From: a virus
Lineage: Duplodnaviria > Caudoviricetes
Strand: one strand, 5' to 3'
IMG/VR virus record: IMGVR_UViG_3300037067_012889
Span: 1-64,000 of that record
DNA: 64,000 bases
The first letter of the stretch is position 1. The number at the start of each line of letters is the position of its first letter. Below are positions 5,831 through 49,956 of the stretch, one piece after another. The position numbers were made by a program, and so were the translations under genes. The notes below the pieces were generated by a model, which did no database searches, was not told the DNA's origin, and was given only the letters and a program-made list of their open reading frames with translations.

Positions 5831-6346
5831 ATGAATCATGTAGGGTATGCTGAGATGGCATATGAGACGCACGATGTGGCATTAATCTGTCTTAACGGAC
5901 ATATTATTAACAGTTCATCTGAGCGTTGTCCAGCTAGAAATTCTTCATTTTGCACTATATGCGGTAAACCAACTATATCAAAGTGCCTATATTGTAATAC
6001 AAACATACGTGGCAGCACGACATACCATGGTAATGTAATTAAGAAACCGCGTCCCATCGGTGTCGCACCAGCCTATTGTGAACACTGCGGAGGAATCATG
6101 CCATGGACAGAAGGTAAATTAGAATCAGCCAAAGAAGCTATAGGCTGGTGCGAAGAGCTAGATGACAAAATAAAGGGTGAGTTGATCAAATCTCTGCCAG
6201 ATATTGCAAAGCAAACACCACGCACTAACTTAGCAGTTGCTCAATTTCAGAGAGCATTAAGAATTGTATTAGATTGTAAAGATTTACTAAAGACACTAAT
6301 CACAGATATAGCAGCGAAGGTCATAGCTGATAAAATCATATCGTAA
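5831..6346 (+). CDS. DUF2321-like zinc-binding protein
   Basis: ICLNGH, FCTICG..TISKC..C..NIRG, YCEHCG..MPWT, TPRT pattern. Confidence 0.75.
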   Translation: MNHVGYAEMAYETHDVALICLNGHIINSSSERCPARNSSFCTICGKPTISKCLYCNTNIRGSTTYHGNVIKKPRPIGVAPAYCEHCGGIMPWTEGKLESAKEAIGWCEELDDKIKGELIKSLPDIAKQTPRTNLAVAQFQRALRIVLDCKDLLKTLITDIAAKVIADKIIS

Positions 6347-7214
6347 TTTTATGTCTCGACTTACCAGACGATGCGTTTAATCTATCCAATTCACTTAACA
6401 ATATCTTAATCTTATCCCCAGTGTCTGAATCTAATCTATTGGTTCCAGGTGGCAATGAATGACGTAACATGGCTATTTTTAAAGCGATTTCTGCTTGCTC
6501 CCTTTTAAGTTGCAAATATGGTATGATTTTCGGCAATATCTCACGCTGTTTATCGGCCATCAGCCTAATGGCCCTAAGTGGCCTTTTATTACCTTTTCCG
6601 CCACCAGAACGTAAAGATCCAACTCCAAGCTGACCTCCCAAATAATCTATCGTTAGCAAATGCGCTAATGAGATTTTATATATTGGTTTTATGGAATGAC
6701 CACCAAGACCAAAACGTCCATTAATGATGGTCCCATCACCATCGGTCATACCGGCCAACCACGGCCAACTAAATATGTGTTCTCTAGGTTCTACATCATT
6801 TATTGCTTTCTTGCCGACTTGATTTAGCTGTCGAACTTTTTTGTAATATGAATGCCATAATTGTGATTCAGCTTCGGAATAAAAAGAATTCTGACCATTT
6901 TTGATATTCAGTGCTGCGAGAGCTAACTTAGCTTGTGGTTGTTTAGTATAAAGATATGGTATTAACTTCGGAAGCAGCAATCGCAATTGGCTACCAGTTA
7001 TTCGGACTGACAATTTTGATGGACGCGGTTGATAATGGCATTTAAGTATTTCACAAACCTTTGGTATGATGATGCTGTCTGTCGTTAGGATTTTGAGATA
7101 ACATCTTCGTATTTTACAACAATGACGTTTTCTTTCGGCCTTAGCATAAGTAAGTATAAAAGAGCCTTCCGCATCAATTACACCACACAACCATTGTATT
7201 TCGTGGTCAAACAT
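6336..7214 (-). mobile_element. free-standing double-motif LAGLIDADG homing endonuclease
   Basis: WLCGVIDAEGSF and WLAGMTDGDGTI; repeated PYLxxKxxQA; start 7214 (MFDHE) follows a minus-strand GTATTTAA at 7229-7236. Confidence 0.9.
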
Positions 7215-7254
7215 ATTATATGTTTGACTTAAATACACAATCAGGATTAAGCAC

Positions 7255-8472
7255 ATGAAAAGCCCATTTCATAAAAACAACACAGGCGGAATGGTAGTAG
7301 TTACGACAGATGGTGGTGCTGGCTCATCTGGTAAAGGTTCCCTCAATTCTTGGCTAGCCGACAAATATCCATTCCACCTGGCCACAAACAACTGGTGCAC
7401 GAATGCTGGCCACTATACCGAACTCGATAATGGGACAAGGATACTCGTCCAACATATACCATCAGCATTTATCAATAAAAACACACAGCTCTACATCAAT
7501 GCTGGTGCGGCGATCGATTTGAAGACGCTTTTTAATGAAGTCTCTAACTTGGAATCTTTGGGATTTCCAATCCGTGATCGTCTTACTATCCACCCGCTCG
7601 CCAATGTAATTACCGAAGAAAATAAACAATATGAACGTGAAACTATCAAGACCGGTAGCACGTTCAAAGGATGTGGTGCTGCTATCGCAGCGAAGGCTAT
7701 GCGATTGCCTCGACAGAAACTCGCCAGAGATTACGAAGAGTTACACGAGTTCTGCACGATTGCCGATTTAACAACAGAGTTGAATCGCCGCATAGCAAAA
7801 CAAGGTATGCGAGTTCTTGTTGAAGGATCACAAGGTGTCGATCTTGATCTTAACTTCGCCGAATATCCATATTGCACATCGCGACAAACACATCCGACAC
7901 AATTGGTCGCTGATGCTGGTCTTCCTGGTAGAGCCATCACGAACGTCGTTATTAATTTGCGCACGAATCCAATACGCATCAGTAATGAATCGGCCGCTAC
8001 TGGTGAACAGTGCTACACAGGCAATTATTGGGAAGCAAGAGAGATTGGATGGGAGGAAGTCGCAAAGCAGGCCGGATATGATAATTTCGATGAATTTGTC
8101 GAAGAGTACAGATATGCAATGATGACATCTGTCACCAAAAAAGTTAGACGAATCTTCGAATTCCCGACTGAGAGAGCCAAATATGTTAATGCTCTTGCTG
8201 GCGGTCTTCTCGAAGAAGGCAATGTTCTTTATAGCCTCAATTTCATCAATTTTGTCGATAGAACCGTCAAAGGCAAGACGACATACGAAGAGGTCTTCAC
8301 GCCCAAGGTCATTAATTGGTTGCGAATGCATCTGCAACCGGTGCTAGAAAACAATGGCAGGTATGTTGATCGTGTGAACGAAAGCTGTGGTGATTCGTCG
8401 GACATGTCGCAATTCTTCGGATTACACTGGGTCAGAACCGGACCGAAGCACAGCCAAATAGTCGAGCTATGA
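7255..8472 (+). CDS. purZ: N6-succino-2-amino-2'-deoxyadenylate synthase (PurZ)-like; adenylosuccinate synthetase family
   Basis: DGGAGSSGKG (Ser at the PurA catalytic Asp), NAGH, GSTFKGCG, VEGSQG, YPYCTSR, TSVTKKVRRIF, LNFINF (instead of PurA TKLD). Confidence 0.8.
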   Translation: MKSPFHKNNTGGMVVVTTDGGAGSSGKGSLNSWLADKYPFHLATNNWCTNAGHYTELDNGTRILVQHIPSAFINKNTQLYINAGAAIDLKTLFNEVSNLESLGFPIRDRLTIHPLANVITEENKQYERETIKTGSTFKGCGAAIAAKAMRLPRQKLARDYEELHEFCTIADLTTELNRRIAKQGMRVLVEGSQGVDLDLNFAEYPYCTSRQTHPTQLVADAGLPGRAITNVVINLRTNPIRISNESAATGEQCYTGNYWEAREIGWEEVAKQAGYDNFDEFVEEYRYAMMTSVTKKVRRIFEFPTERAKYVNALAGGLLEEGNVLYSLNFINFVDRTVKGKTTYEEVFTPKVINWLRMHLQPVLENNGRYVDRVNESCGDSSDMSQFFGLHWVRTGPKHSQIVEL

Positions 8473-41503: not shown

Positions 41504-42388
41504 ATGAGCATAACAGTATCGATAATCGGCAGGAATGAAGAAGACAATATCAGTCGTTGTATCAAATCTGTATTGCCTATTGCCGATTTAGTTGTCTATG
41601 CCGACACTGGCAGCACAGATTCTACTGTAGGAATTGTAGAGTCTTTAGCTAATAAAACACATAAAATTACGATACGCCATATTACATTCGACGATTTCGC
41701 ACAAGCACGTAATGAAGCGAAGAAAGGCGTTCCTGGCGACTGGATCCTACAAATCGATGCCGACGAAACGCTAAACAATGCATCAAAATTGCATACACTT
41801 TGTGGGCCAGATGAGTTCAAAGAGGCATACCTATTTTCACAAGAGCATCTGATACTCGGCGGCAATAAGACGTCTGTCGTAATGCGCCTATTCAAAAACC
41901 GCGAGCATTATCAATATGTCGGCTGCATTCACGAGATGCCAGAAAACATCCAGGTCACTGGACCAGATAAAGCCATTGAGCCTTTTGCATTCATTCAAGG
42001 TATCTATTTTGCTCATTATGGCTGCGTCGATGAACAGTTACGACGCGCGAAAGTCTCAAATCGCAATCTCGAACTACTTATTAAAGATCTGCGTGTAAAT
42101 CCAGATAGATCATATAATAAGTATCTCATGATTCGAGATTACCTCAACATCTATAAATGGCGAACAGCGGCAAATGGCTTTCGATGCACATACAATTCAA
42201 TTGAACATCAACTACTTTGTGCAATTATCAGAGATCACGACCAATACAAGGATATCGTATTACCACGATATCAAGAGCTAGCTAGTGAAGTGTGTGCTAC
42301 GGCATATTCCCTATTAGCACAACAGGAAATGCAACTTATCGAGACTGATCTGCAACCGACTGCTCTATTATCTTTAGGATTGTCGTAA
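41504..42388 (+). CDS. glycosyltransferase family 2
   Basis: RNEE, DTGSTD, DFAQARN, IDADE, IHE, HYG. Confidence 0.9.
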   Translation: MSITVSIIGRNEEDNISRCIKSVLPIADLVVYADTGSTDSTVGIVESLANKTHKITIRHITFDDFAQARNEAKKGVPGDWILQIDADETLNNASKLHTLCGPDEFKEAYLFSQEHLILGGNKTSVVMRLFKNREHYQYVGCIHEMPENIQVTGPDKAIEPFAFIQGIYFAHYGCVDEQLRRAKVSNRNLELLIKDLRVNPDRSYNKYLMIRDYLNIYKWRTAANGFRCTYNSIEHQLLCAIIRDHDQYKDIVLPRYQELASEVCATAYSLLAQQEMQLIETDLQPTALLSLGLS

Positions 42389-44153: not shown

Positions 44154-45158
44154 ATGAATTTAGATCAACTAAAAGCAATATTGGCGTCTCCAAAAACAGC
44201 TATGGACTTGTTTGGCGATGACCCAGACAAGACTTATCGTGAATGGGCTTTGATTTGCCATCCGGACCGTTTTGTAACTAGCACAGATGATGTAAAGGAA
44301 TACGCCAAAAATGTTTTCACGCTGCTTGAAAAACGCCGTGAAGAATTAAAGACGCCACCTACGATTTGGAAGTCCCCGGATTTCGAATATCATCTTGGAC
44401 CACAGATCGGAAGCGGCGAAGTTTCAAAGGTCTATCTCGCCACACAGAAGAAAGGCGGCGACTCAAAGCCGGTCGTTCTTAAAGTCGCTCACGTTAAAGA
44501 GGCGAACGAATACATCGAGAAAGAGGCCAAGATTCTCGCCGATATACGTGTTCAAGCCGGTGATCGGAAATATAGCGAATATGTGGCCAAACCGATCGAG
44601 CTTTTCACGCACGACGAGCTTCGAATTGCTGTCCAGCAGCACTATGATGGATACTACACCGTCAACGAGTACATGACGAAATATCCAAATGGCGTGGGCG
44701 GCAGGCATGTTGCGTGGATGTTCAATCGGACACTCACAATTCTCGGTTTCATACACGCTATCAATTACATGCATTGTGCCCCGATGCCGATGCATTTGCT
44801 GTTCAACAATGTCAATCGTGGCTGCAAGTTGATAAGTTGGGCTAGCTGCTGTCGTATGGAGCAGAAGCTTTCAGTCGTGCCGTTGTCCCACAAAACATGG
44901 TATCCGAAGCTGGAAATCACAAAACAGTACCCAGCAACACCAAGCCTTGATATCTATTTGGCGTCGAAAACGATGTTGGAAATGTGCAAACAACACAAGC
45001 CGGGCGAAGTTCCGTCGAAATTGATTGTGTTTTTGGAATCGTGCGTTAATCCGAAGCCACTACAAAGACCACAAGACGCTTGGAAATTATTAGACGAATG
45101 GAAACATCTGCTTAAGTTGGTCTATGGACCTCCACGATATGACGCTTTACCAATGTAA
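44154..45158 (+). CDS. J-domain (HPD) fused to protein-kinase-fold domain, probable pseudokinase
   Basis: YREWALICHPDRF; IGSGEVSKVY, VVLK, EKEAKIL; catalytic loop HCAPMPMH and ISW in place of HRD/DFG; DIY. Confidence 0.85.
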   Translation: MNLDQLKAILASPKTAMDLFGDDPDKTYREWALICHPDRFVTSTDDVKEYAKNVFTLLEKRREELKTPPTIWKSPDFEYHLGPQIGSGEVSKVYLATQKKGGDSKPVVLKVAHVKEANEYIEKEAKILADIRVQAGDRKYSEYVAKPIELFTHDELRIAVQQHYDGYYTVNEYMTKYPNGVGGRHVAWMFNRTLTILGFIHAINYMHCAPMPMHLLFNNVNRGCKLISWASCCRMEQKLSVVPLSHKTWYPKLEITKQYPATPSLDIYLASKTMLEMCKQHKPGEVPSKLIVFLESCVNPKPLQRPQDAWKLLDEWKHLLKLVYGPPRYDALPM

Positions 45159-45194
45159 CTAATCCGTGTTCCCCTAACCTATGGAGTGATTACT

Positions 45195-46175
45195 ATGGGT
45201 GGTACTAGATGGTCTGACGACCATTACAAAGATCGTGTTACAATGCGGGCCGCAACCGGCAAGCCTACTTTCGCCTATGATAGTGCGATGAGATCGGCAC
45301 CAGTCAGTGCCCGCAAAGTCCACGACAGCCTCAACCCGTTCGGCGTGAAATTCCGCGAAAGCCGCGACAGCGATGCCCATCCGACAAGCTTGGCTATCGG
45401 CGTTCTCTTCGACGAAACCGGCTCCATGGCACGAGTTCCGGTACAGTTCCAGACCGCATTGCCACAATTGATGGGTCTCCTGATGCGGAAGGGTGTCGTC
45501 GAGCATCCGCAAATCTTGATTGGTGCCTTCGGAGACGCCAGTGGTGGCGGCGAGCGTGCTCCGCTGCAAGTCGGTCAATTCGAATCCGGCATCGAGATCG
45601 AAGACTGCTTGACCAACATCTATCTGGAAGGCCAGGGCGGCGGTCAGAACACCGAGAGCTACGAGTTGGCTATGTACTTCATGGCTCGACATACGGCACT
45701 CGACTGCTTCGAGAAGCGGAACAAGAAGGGCTACCTCTTCTTGACCGGCGACGAGTTGTATTATCCGCAGGTGAAGGCCGAAGAAGTCAAGCGGCTTATC
45801 GGTGACACCCTGCAGGAGAACATCCCCGTCGAGACGATTATGGAAGAATTGCAGACGATGTATGACGTCTACTTCCTGATTCCACGTGGCACCAGCCATT
45901 ATGACGCGCCGTGGCTGCTGGAAGGCTGGCAGAAGCTTCTCGGGCAGCAAGTCTTGCGACTCGACGACCCCGATGCCATCAGCGAAGTCGTCGCGAGCAC
46001 GATCAGCCTCGCCGAGGGCTATGATCTCGATTCGGTTGGCCGTGGCCTTGATGAAGCCGGTGTTTCCAAGGACCGGCGTGCCTCAATCACCAAGGCCCTC
46101 GTGCCCTTGGCTGATTCGGCTGGTCGTAAGATCGTTAAAGGTTCCGTTTCTGGAACCGGGTTGGCGAAGATCTGA
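45195..46175 (+). CDS. vWA (MIDAS) domain protein
   Basis: FDETGSM, GQFE, GGGQ..ESY, FLTGDE; visibly GC-rich codon usage. Confidence 0.9.
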   Translation: MGGTRWSDDHYKDRVTMRAATGKPTFAYDSAMRSAPVSARKVHDSLNPFGVKFRESRDSDAHPTSLAIGVLFDETGSMARVPVQFQTALPQLMGLLMRKGVVEHPQILIGAFGDASGGGERAPLQVGQFESGIEIEDCLTNIYLEGQGGGQNTESYELAMYFMARHTALDCFEKRNKKGYLFLTGDELYYPQVKAEEVKRLIGDTLQENIPVETIMEELQTMYDVYFLIPRGTSHYDAPWLLEGWQKLLGQQVLRLDDPDAISEVVASTISLAEGYDLDSVGRGLDEAGVSKDRRASITKALVPLADSAGRKIVKGSVSGTGLAKI

Positions 46176-46194
46176 AGTAGATGAATATTACTTC

Positions 46195-46226
46195 ACGGGA
46201 GTGCCAATCAAAGTTGGCACTCCCGT
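46195..46226 (+). terminator. 13-bp stem-loop after the vWA gene (terminator or mRNA stabiliser)
   Basis: ACGGGAGTGCCAA / TTGGCACTCCCGT; no long U tract. Confidence 0.6.
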
Positions 46227-46252
46227 TCCATATAAAAGTAAGGATACGATAA

Positions 46253-47458
46253 GTGAGACGTGCTGTAATAACTGTCGGTCTTGGGTTTGGTGATGAAGCC
46301 AAGGGGGCCACATGTGATTATTTATGCAGAAGGCTTAAAGCCGATCTTGTCGTTCGCTATTGTGGTGGGTGCCAGGCTGCACACAATGTAGTATTGCCGG
46401 ATGGAACACACCACACTTTTAGCCAATTTGGTTCTGGAACTTTTTCTGGTGTCTCGACCTATCTAGGACCAGATGTGATTATTTCACCATTGGCAATGGT
46501 GAATGAAGCTAATCATCTAATTGACATCGGACTACGGAATCCGTGGGCCAGTTTGCGTGTTGATGAGCGATGCCTAATAGCAACACCATATCATCAATCT
46601 CTAAACAGATTCAGAGAACGAAATAGAGGTAATGAGTGTCACGGCTCTTGCGGTATGGGAGTTGGCGCGACACGAGAGCATGCTATATATTATAATGACG
46701 ATGCACTTAGAGTACAAGACTTAGCATCTTATAGTAATACTATAACAAAACTGAGAAAAATACAACAATGGGTCCATGAATCTGCAGGGCATCCAATAAC
46801 AGATCATATGGATTCATATAGCGTTTATGATCGTCTACATGATGCATCTTCTAAAATGCCTATCGTCAGAGAGATGCCAAGATTCAAAATGGCTATATTC
46901 GAGGGTGCTCAAGGTATTCTTCTTGACGAAAATCATGGTTGCCATCCCTATACTACTTGGTCAACAGTCACGCTAAAACACGCCATCGAATTGCTTCGAA
47001 ATACAGACATAGAAGTTAATGTTATGGGGTGTATTAGATCGTACATGACGCGGCATGGAGCTGGTCCGCTATCACTAGAGAACCCAAATTTGATCGGTGC
47101 CGCCGACGCTAGTAATCCGCCAAATGAATGGCAAGGACGTATGCGATATGCTCCGCTTGACTTAAATATTTTAAGTCACTCGAAAGAAGTTTTAGGTGGA
47201 AAGCTTCATAATGTTTCATTGAGTTGTTTAGATCATATCGACGGTTCAATTCCTGTAGTTGATAAAGATATCGAGCATGTAAGCTCAGTAGAGCTTATTA
47301 AAAAAATTGAAAGAGTATTAGCACCGGTCGCTATTACGGGGCGTGGGCCATGTTATACCGATCGCTGCATGGGGAGCTTGTCGTGGCATTCTTTAGAAGA
47401 AACAATCGAGGTGAATGATGGCCAAAGATTTACGGTCTGCAATAGCACAAGCACGTGA
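46253..47458 (+). CDS. adenylosuccinate synthetase-like paralogue (divergent PurA)
   Basis: GFGDEAKG, VRY.GG.QAAH, HGSCGMG, FEGAQG, HPYTT.S, Y.TRHGAGP, SCLD; aspartate loop reads NEWQGRMR. Confidence 0.9.
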   Translation: MRRAVITVGLGFGDEAKGATCDYLCRRLKADLVVRYCGGCQAAHNVVLPDGTHHTFSQFGSGTFSGVSTYLGPDVIISPLAMVNEANHLIDIGLRNPWASLRVDERCLIATPYHQSLNRFRERNRGNECHGSCGMGVGATREHAIYYNDDALRVQDLASYSNTITKLRKIQQWVHESAGHPITDHMDSYSVYDRLHDASSKMPIVREMPRFKMAIFEGAQGILLDENHGCHPYTTWSTVTLKHAIELLRNTDIEVNVMGCIRSYMTRHGAGPLSLENPNLIGAADASNPPNEWQGRMRYAPLDLNILSHSKEVLGGKLHNVSLSCLDHIDGSIPVVDKDIEHVSSVELIKKIERVLAPVAITGRGPCYTDRCMGSLSWHSLEETIEVNDGQRFTVCNSTST

Positions 47459-49164: not shown

Positions 49165-49956
49165 TCAAGAGAGACCACAAATCGAAAGCATAACCTCGTT
49201 TAATTCGCTCTTCGATATCGATCTCTGACCAACAGTATTGTTGTGGTCCCATTTAAAACGATTCAATCCAGCTATAACTGAATCGATGCGTTTCTCATCT
49301 TCTAACTTTATATAATAGTGTGCAGTCGACGCCACTGACAATTCTTTACTTGCCTTGCCCGCATACATACCTACTCTTCTTACACAGAAATGTGCTTCAT
49401 TTCTCCTCACATAGGAGAATCCGACCGGTGCGGCACGATGTTGTTTTGGTCTGGGAACATTTTTATTTTCCCAGATTTGAAACACTACGGGCACTTCTTG
49501 TACTTTTCCATCTAATGTAGCGTTCTTTAACGGAACGTCTATCTGTTTCACCAGATGGTAATTCTTAGGCACTCTCGCCTGTATGCTGTCCTTCTTATAT
49601 GACAATGGCAAGATGAATGCGATAGTATCAGCTATTTCAGCACATTTCTTGATAAATGCGAGAGCTAATGATCCATTTGTACCAAAAGGTGGATTACCTA
49701 TACATAATATGTCTTTGCGATCTACTGGTCCGACGTAGCCTAGTCGTAAGAAGTTATATTTTACTATCGACGAATGTTTTGGGTCTATGTCGAAGGCAAC
49801 ACATCCTGGTATTTGGCAAGAAAATGAGCCATCTCCAGCCGATGGCTCAATCACTAATTTAAATCTGGATGTATCGACTTCATCGATTAACTTCTTTGCT
49901 ATATCTGGAATAGTAAAAAATGTACATTGGCTGCTTTTTCTTATATGAATTCCCAT
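49165..49956 (-). CDS. DNA amino-methyltransferase (N6-adenine type, NPPF)
   Basis: FFT, IEPSAGDGSF (motif I), IGNPPFG (motif IV), AFILP. Confidence 0.9.
   Translation of the reverse strand: MGIHIRKSSQCTFFTIPDIAKKLIDEVDTSRFKLVIEPSAGDGSFSCQIPGCVAFDIDPKHSSIVKYNFLRLGYVGPVDRKDILCIGNPPFGTNGSLALAFIKKCAEIADTIAFILPLSYKKDSIQARVPKNYHLVKQIDVPLKNATLDGKVQEVPVVFQIWENKNVPRPKQHRAAPVGFSYVRRNEAHFCVRRVGMYAGKASKELSVASTAHYYIKLEDEKRIDSVIAGLNRFKWDHNNTVGQRSISKSELNEVMLSICGLS

Follow-up and report, generated by a model that had tools for sequence, protein, structure and literature searches.

Enzymes of the adenylosuccinate synthetase (PurA) family belong to the SIMIBI class of P-loop NTPases and have two known jobs, the production of AMP by PurA and of the Z base by PurZ. 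PurZ proteins are phage paralogues of PurA that modify the genome base (PMC8342488), and they carry a serine at the position of Asp13 in PurA (bioRxiv 10.1101/2025.10.22.683976). Here, we analyze a 64,000-nucleotide stretch of viral DNA (the window; positions 1 to 64,000 of IMG/VR record IMGVR_UViG_3300037067_012889) in which a PurA-like gene is the last of three genes that lie head to tail on the + strand. The first gene encodes a predicted J-domain fused to a kinase fold and the second a protein with a predicted von Willebrand factor A (vWA) fold. The source record is 363,885 bp long and rated complete by CheckV, placing it among the jumbo phages. We find that the trio is a conserved unit in phages and bacteria and not a chance neighborhood, and that in bacteria it is linked to a gene for an NrtR regulator. 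This linkage, which was absent from an initial annotation made from the letters of the window and its open reading frames (ORFs), is the best functional lead that we have.

Results

The module is carried by about 220 sequenced phages. Its kinase-like, vWA and PurA-like proteins each match 202 phage records, 201 from Mycobacterium and one from Mycolicibacterium (Bixzunavirus), and in phage Nidhogg the trio corresponds to genes 262, 263 and 265, with the window order kept and with nothing returned by a Pfam scan of gene 264. Five relatives were found in IMG/VR, three of them jumbo contigs of 234-388 kb with the genes in the window order; this order is seen in jumbo-phage contigs L002-L006. The vWA gene is followed directly by the PurA-like gene in RHph_TM39, a Rhizobium phage, and in Va1, a Vibrio phage, and no pseudokinase was detected in either phage, even by profile hidden Markov model. 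Searching the phage collection with the nucleotide sequence of the trio gave no match, and a literature search found no paper describing the module.

Relatives also occur on bacterial chromosomes. The vWA family has 5,395 database matches, some on megabase contigs, and a scan of species-representative genomes identified a relative in at least 451 bacterial species. We determined gene order in 80 fetched bacterial loci from Actinomycetota, Planctomycetota and Chloroflexota, and approximately 70 of them read nrtR, J-pseudokinase, vWA, PurA-like. The bacterial and phage kinase-like proteins have the J-domain and an H-G-A motif in common and are 31% identical over their full length. The PurA-like branch was never found without the vWA partner gene, a linkage that is strict across phyla, and the vWA and PurA-like trees are broadly congruent: in both, a jumbo-phage clade lies beside a Planctomycetota-type clade, the actinobacterial group stands apart, and the sequences from the Rhizobium and Vibrio phages pair together at a distance. 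The initial annotation had taken the three genes for a module with similar neighborhoods in bacteria, and the co-occurrence across phages and bacteria uncovered by this gene-neighborhood analysis bears that view out.

The third gene belongs to the PF00709 family (165 bits), and its family profile matches E. coli PurA (1KJX) at E 5e-60. However, the highest score that it reaches with an NCBIfam PurA model is 132.9 bits, where 402 is required, and it falls below every NCBIfam PurA cut-off. In E. coli numbering, the family keeps Asp13, Lys16, His41, Gln224, Thr239, Asp333 and Gly416-Pro417. D14, K17, H44 and Q220 of the window protein are invariant in an alignment of the PurA-like family (A3), with Asp14, His44 and Gln220 corresponding to E. 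coli Asp13, His41 and Gln224. Other positions differ from E. coli PurA in every member: N38Q, T128S/T129C, S240W, V273H and T300W/T301Q are family-invariant changes, as is a hydrophobic residue in place of R305. In addition, R304 is deleted, and R143 and R303 are not conserved. The IMP (inosine monophosphate) 5'-phosphate ligands Asn38 and Thr129 are thereby replaced by Gln and Cys, the position of the third, Arg143, is Tyr in the window and variable in the family, and where PurA has its aspartate loop (Thr300-Thr301-Gly-Arg303-x-Arg305) the window reads W293-Q294-G. The kept and changed residues together suggest that the GTP-dependent activation chemistry is preserved and that the IMP 5'-phosphate and aspartate sites have been rebuilt family-wide. 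The initial annotation had described a divergent PurA paralogue with a function unrelated to AMP synthesis, and the remodeling of both substrate sites supports this description; that the enzyme makes adenylosuccinate from IMP and aspartate appears very unlikely.

These residues bear on the possibility that the PurA-like protein is an ordinary auxiliary metabolic enzyme that raises AMP from IMP, with the two upstream genes as unrelated neighbors. Phages often carry genes for nucleotide metabolism, and the PF00709 match and the retained P-loop, Asp13, His41 and Gln224 would fit such a role. We nevertheless consider it highly improbable in light of the family-wide alterations at the phosphate ligands (N38, T129, R143) and the aspartate loop (T300, T301, R303-R305), a score of 133 bits that is far under the 402-bit cut-off, and the strict linkage to the vWA gene. 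Furthermore, all three bacterial genomes tested hold a canonical PurA (560-620 bits) beside the PurA-like paralogue (~195 bits).

A second proposal gives the PurA-like protein a part in genome modification, as a PurZ-like or otherwise new purine-modifying synthetase that supplies the phage with a non-canonical DNA base. PurZ does so (PMC8342488), phrog_1211 is named for that activity, and a separate PurZ-like gene is present in the same phage. Several features of gene 3 leave this proposal with very little to recommend it. Its motif GDEAKG keeps the Asp at the position where PurZ has Ser (bioRxiv 10.1101/2025.10.22.683976), the guanine-specificity residue Asp333 is retained, and the NCBIfam PurZ model (NF038379) scores 39 bits against a cut-off of 300. 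Moreover, the presence of the module in bacterial chromosomes behind NrtR is a poor fit to the modification of virion DNA. Judged by its residues, gene 3 is neither a housekeeping PurA nor a PurZ.

The separate PurZ-like gene (window 7255-8472, + strand) reads GSSGKG, with Ser in place of Asp13, and scores 176 bits against the NCBIfam PurZ model, under the 300-bit cut-off; through it, the phage may make 2-aminoadenine. Directly upstream, a 306-residue ORF (6336-7256, - strand) has two LAGLIDADG-like motifs, VIDAEGSF and MTDGDGT, and probably encodes a homing endonuclease.

The first gene of the module matches Pfam Pkinase (35 bits) and phrog_3043 "kinase" (60 bits). Its AlphaFold2 model, built on a 22-sequence alignment, has a pLDDT of 91.6, and the C-terminal 270 residues of the model match protein kinases in Foldseek with a TM-score of ~0.7 normalized to the target. 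In an alignment of 22 gene 1 family sequences (A1), no variation is seen at the VAIK-type Lys121 or at Glu135 of alpha-C, and the Gly-loop is kept. An active eukaryotic-like kinase has an HRD Asp and a DFG Asp, and the window protein has neither: the HRD position in the family is H-G/C-A with an invariant Ala220 (HCAP in the window), the equivalent of Asn171 is His225, and the position of the DFG Asp is D, G or S, with the window reading ISW, that is, Ser. Because this pattern is family-wide, the absence of both catalytic Asp residues is a family trait rather than a lesion of the window copy. The N-terminal 75 residues are helical, with helices at residues 35-46 and 56-77 of the model, and carry YREWALICHPDRF. 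The HPD motif is nearly invariant across the family (ICHPDRF in the window), and Pfam DnaJ (PF00226) matches 15 of the 22 members at E <= 0.1, with a best value of 1.7e-4; the window protein is not among them. A J-domain with HPD joined to a kinase fold that retains the Gly-loop, Lys and Glu and has lost the catalytic Asp residues is what the initial annotation had read from the window. The alignment and the structural model agree with it, and by its sequence features gene 1 encodes a predicted J-domain protein with a catalytically dead kinase fold.

The N-lobe of this kinase fold weakly resembles those of defense kinases (PADLOC mad6 at 39 bits, and PD-T4-6), and the module as a whole is sparse, with no occurrence among 200 other evenly sampled Actinomycetota and 10 among 200 sampled Planctomycetota. 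Such a patchy distribution would fit a conflict system, and ADP-ribose is a by-product of defenses that cleave nicotinamide adenine dinucleotide (NAD). On these grounds the operon could in bacteria be an ADP-ribose-triggered stress or anti-phage module, loosely similar to TerY or kinase/vWA systems, that phages carry for superinfection exclusion or as a decoy. We consider this unlikely, as PADLOC gives no match for the vWA or the PurA-like protein and the system has no PP2C and no active kinase. In addition, every one of the 202 records of the lytic Bixzunavirus phages has kept it, which speaks for a function in phage replication.

The product of the second gene matched no Pfam, NCBIfam or PADLOC model, and its only hit was phrog_2971 (unknown function) at 226 bits. 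Its fold was nonetheless recognizable in an AlphaFold2 model with a pLDDT of 84 and a pTM of 0.86. The model aligns to integrin beta I-like domains with a Z of 15.2 in VIA-align, all 50 of the 50 best rows are vWA domains, and Foldseek agrees with this fold (E 3e-6). The metal ion-dependent adhesion site (MIDAS) residues D76-E-T78-G-S80 are invariant in an alignment of 27 vWA sequences (A2), and the family is unusually conserved, with a mean column identity of 63%. The initial annotation had called this gene a MIDAS vWA protein, and the predicted fold and invariant DETGS confirm it: as modeled, gene 2 is a vWA-fold protein with a DxSxS-type MIDAS motif. The disordered, Gly-rich C-terminal tail (the last ~16 codons) ends in a conserved R-L in bacteria and in GLAKI in the window phage, and this conserved end looks like a docking peptide for a partner. 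Some of the Bixzunavirus genomes, among them records H115-H119 and H140-H147, differ in that the vWA match falls in two pieces spanning ~1,720 bp as compared with 957 bp. We therefore suspect that an insertion of ~760 bp (an intron, intein or homing-endonuclease gene) splits the vWA gene in these phages.

A MIDAS vWA protein next to a P-loop enzyme and a J-domain raises the possibility of an assembly machine, in which the PurA-like protein serves chiefly as a GTP switch and joins the vWA protein and DnaK in remodeling another protein or inserting a metal or cofactor into it. The SIMIBI membership of PurA, the pairing of vWA/MIDAS adaptors with ATPase motors in MoxR systems and the ability of a J-domain to bring in a chaperone are all in keeping with it. 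Asp13, His41 and Gln224 are invariant, however, and would be needless in a pure switch, and no conserved client gene is present; we regard such a machine as quite unlikely.

The vWA gene of the window has a GC content of 56.7% and a third-position GC content (GC3) of 67%, compared with a GC3 of 51% for the kinase gene, 32% for the PurA-like gene, 29-51% for the neighbors measured and 42% for the whole window. It also exceeds its module neighbors in GC at the other phage and planctomycete loci that we examined (L001-L008, L010, L011), be they low or high in GC, and the excess is not seen in a 75%-GC Nocardiopsis locus (L024). The bias is thus for the most part a property of the gene itself, and a recent insert taken from a host is not indicated. 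We considered, and rejected, a recent horizontal transfer confined to vWA as its cause, since the trees place the jumbo-phage clade alike and the excess is present in most loci examined.

Downstream of the vWA gene lies a hairpin (46195-46226) of 13 Watson-Crick pairs and one G-U pair. The minimum free energy of 46160-46260 is -35.2 kcal/mol (z-score -5.75). It lacks a U-tract, and terminator prediction did not report it. Hairpins of unrelated sequence occupy the same junction between the vWA and PurA-like genes in two related contigs (L002 and L003), and in a third (L004), where the gap is 4 nt, the hairpin is absent. A GC-rich vWA gene and a 13-bp hairpin after it had both been noted in the initial annotation and are both present. 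The over-expression that it read from them is not supported as stated, given a hairpin that occurs in two relatives and is missing from a third, and remains a matter of inference, as do the host-like codons that it saw in the vWA gene; differential accumulation of the vWA message is possible.

The window and contig L003 are 89% identical in the kinase and 95% in the vWA protein. The window vWA protein is 93-95% identical to those of L003 and L004 but the PurA-like protein only 64-66%. This contrast suggests that the module is a mosaic, with a recombination breakpoint near the vWA/PurA-like junction, where the stem-loop sits. In L003, a closely related jumbo-phage contig, a 726-bp insert (6990-7716) separates the two genes.

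The bacterial gene upstream of the trio encodes a NUDIX domain and an NrtR winged-helix domain. NrtR proteins repress NAD metabolism and respond to ADP-ribose (Rodionov et al. 2008, PMC2330246), and placement of the module behind such an ADP-ribose sensor would tie it to NAD breakdown. At high-GC actinobacterial loci (L022-L095), the DNA 20-180 nt ahead of nrtR contains AT-rich palindromes of the form TCTCA-N4-GAGA, two or three in tandem, which are a candidate operator for the trio-linked NrtR paralogue. In two planctomycete loci (L009 and L010) the operon closes a run of genes for NAPRTase, NAD synthase (NadE), a deoxyribosyltransferase-like protein, NrtR, NADAR, DUF4291, KptA and an ADP-ribosylglycohydrolase. 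Phages have neighbors of this type as well. In Vibrio phage Va1 a NADAR-domain gene (L008 3209-3859) lies 1.1 kb upstream of the vWA and PurA-like pair, and in Rhizobium phage RHph_TM39 (L007 5-2269) genes for a HAD hydrolase, a ComF-like PRTase_3 and a Nudix protein are found upstream, with a HIRAN-domain gene immediately before vWA. Pfam gave nothing in a scan of the otherwise unassigned ORFs upstream of vWA in these two phages.

Some neighbors could point to repair instead. KptA in L009, a polynucleotide kinase in Nidhogg and a TROVE/Ro60-like protein in L006 are RNA-repair or quality genes, and the enzyme has kept the catalytic set for activating a 6-oxopurine and lost the 5'-phosphate ligands. 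It could then re-aminate deaminated adenine (inosine-type) in RNA, a nucleoside or a dinucleotide such as deamino-NAD. Against this, the neighbors are inconsistent across loci and there is no lyase partner for a succinyl-type adduct, and we judge repair to be decidedly unlikely. The TROVE/Ro60-like protein (L006 343-1980) has a vWA domain of its own; the viral contig is 85 kb long, and the trio comes right after this gene.

The features of the window module are listed in Table 1. The interval given by the initial annotation (44154-47458), with three co-oriented genes, proved essentially right and agrees with the ORF list. The ORFs are 345 or 334 residues long for gene 1 (44121/44154-45158), 329 or 326 for the vWA gene (45186/45195-46175) and 401 for the PurA-like gene. 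The starts at 44154 and 45195 are likelier because relatives begin at MNLDQL (gene 1) and MGG (vWA). A Pfam scan of the small ORFs 3' of the PurA-like gene gave nothing. Further out, the flanks hold a family-2 glycosyltransferase gene and a DNA-methyltransferase-like gene (- strand), at 41504-42388 and 49165-49956 (phrog_5172 and phrog_799).

Table 1. Positions of the module features in the window
Feature	Position	Strand	Evidence and remarks
J-domain of gene 1 (putative)	44154..44354	+	HPD at ~44259-44267; alternative ORF start 44121; helical in AlphaFold2 model
Pseudokinase domain of gene 1 (predicted)	44355..45158	+	Pfam Pkinase 35 bits; phrog_3043; Foldseek kinase matches
vWA/MIDAS gene (predicted fold)	45195..46175	+	MIDAS DETGS at ~45411-45425; possible GTG start 45186; phrog_2971 226 bits
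Stem-loop, 13-14 bp, between vWA and PurA-like genes	46195..46226	+	Folding energy
PurA-family gene	46253..47458	+	PF00709 165 bits; P-loop GDEAKG at ~46289-46306

Discussion

The reading that we put first, with a probability of roughly 0.4, is that the module encodes a ligase, driven by GTP, whose substrate is linked to NAD/ADP-ribose or of nucleoside type, that the vWA protein is its obligate partner and the J-pseudokinase couples it to host DnaK, and that phages carry it free of NrtR control. The trio would be the phage copy of a bacterial accessory operon composed of nrtR, J-pseudokinase, vWA and PurA-like genes. We envision the PurA-like protein as the catalytic subunit, which would bind GTP and use Asp14, His44 and Gln220 to phosphorylate an oxo or hydroxyl group of a substrate whose class we infer to be purine- or ribosyl-type, lacking the 5'-phosphate handle of IMP. 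In the next step, a nucleophile that is not aspartate would be attached to this activated intermediate. As obligate partner, the vWA protein could clamp the enzyme or the ligand through its MIDAS metal. A prediction of the complex of the PurA-like and vWA proteins returned a score of 0.00, which gives no verdict and is evidence neither way. We found nothing to support the suggestions, in the initial annotation, that the vWA protein presents a target and that the outcome is a protein modification. The J-pseudokinase would serve as a nucleotide-binding, catalytically dead scaffold whose HPD motif recruits host DnaK to load or reset the complex. In bacteria, the operon behind the repressor NrtR would be induced by the breakdown of NAD+; large phages, without NrtR, presumably keep or exploit a pool of NAD/ADP-ribose-derived nucleotides during infection, possibly against NAD+-depleting immunity.

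Several observations weigh against this reading. The J region of the window protein itself stays below the Pfam DnaJ threshold (E <= 0.1), and the link to DnaK would be dispensable in the Rhizobium and Vibrio phages, as they have no detectable pseudokinase. NrtR-family regulators also control pathways other than NAD metabolism, for example pentose utilization (Rodionov et al. 2008, PMC2330246). The window phage has no nrtR at the trio, and TCTCA-N4-GAGA occurs nine times in the window, with 15 matches expected by chance and none near the trio. NAMPT/NAPRTase (PF04095) and NMNAT (PF01467) genes were not found in the 363,885-bp genome. With NAMPT and NMNAT genes, nrtR and an operator near the trio all missing from the phage, the NAD link rests on comparison with bacteria and other phages. 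Finally, flanks beyond the four genes vary in actinobacteria; the bacterial flank genes seen (gamma-glutamyltranspeptidase, an MFS transporter and PdxS) are not conserved across loci. The phage genome was also found to have no HSP70 gene and a single, distant Nudix gene.

The same NAD context could be taken further, to a new, self-contained pathway with which large phages rescue NAD or make an NAD derivative in the face of immunity that depletes NAD+. In such a pathway, PurA chemistry would have moved to a new substrate: ADP-ribose, or a breakdown product related to it, would be activated on an oxygen atom at the expense of GTP and then linked to nicotinamide or to some other nitrogen nucleophile. 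Host DnaK would be the activase, harnessed by the vWA adaptor and the J-domain pseudokinase. We think it doubtful that the module extends to a complete pathway of this kind, and favor the ligase with its vWA partner and chaperone link as set out above.

If this reading is correct, the PurA-like branch would represent a third job for the PurA family, with rebuilt pockets, and the module could provide the first example of a vWA adaptor and a J-domain pseudokinase working together on an enzyme. NAD breakdown is the currency of many anti-phage defenses, and knowing the reaction could bring to light a nucleotide metabolite not seen before or a new route of counter-defense. The module is present in every Bixzunavirus record matched, and Bixzunavirus phages are easy to engineer.

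Like PurA itself (EC 6.3.4.4; 1ADE, 1KJX), the third protein has the PF00709 fold, the GTP P-loop, Asp13/His41/Gln224 and Asp333. Unlike PurA, it has rebuilt sites for the IMP 5'-phosphate and for aspartate, lies under the NCBIfam cut-offs, is a second copy in bacteria and is always paired with a vWA gene. It resembles PurZ, the N6-succino-2-amino-2'-deoxyadenylate synthase of Z-genome phages, in being a phage PurA paralogue with a predicted change in substrate specificity, and differs from it in keeping the Asp that is Ser in PurZ as well as the GTP-type Asp333, in not lying next to datZ or mazZ, and in its PurZ score, which is 39 bits as compared with 176 for the separate PurZ-like gene of the same phage.

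Two further systems invite comparison at the level of the module. NARP1 (Adps and Namat) and NARP2 (NAMPT and NMNAT) are likewise phage-borne modules, and the trio shares with them a contextual link to NAD/ADP-ribose. Its proteins are non-homologous and of other families, however, and its genome has no NAMPT/NAPRTase or NMNAT family gene. The TerY-P triad (vWA, Ser/Thr kinase and PP2C) also has a kinase-fold gene adjoining a vWA gene, and the initial annotation had drawn on TerY-type systems as an analogy. This analogy is not supported as stated: in the trio the kinase is predicted to be dead and carries a J-domain, the vWA protein has no Pfam VWA match, the constant partner is a PurA-like enzyme, and no PP2C phosphatase was found among the flanking ORFs scanned.

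The MoxR AAA+/vWA systems (CbbQ-CbbO, NorQ-NorD, CoxD-CoxE, RavA-ViaA and ChlI-ChlD) offer a functional analogy only, in that a MIDAS vWA protein stands beside an enzyme and a recruiter of an ATP-driven machine. The trio has no AAA+ gene, and the window ORFs scanned on its flanks gave no match to an AAA+ family. At the loci from bacteria, the vWA gene has the pseudokinase and PurA-like genes as its immediate neighbors, with nrtR upstream and no MoxR-type AAA+ gene adjoining. By this analogy, the motor would be host Hsp70, brought in through the J-domain on the pseudokinase, and the complex would represent an Hsp70-driven counterpart of the MoxR AAA+/vWA activases.

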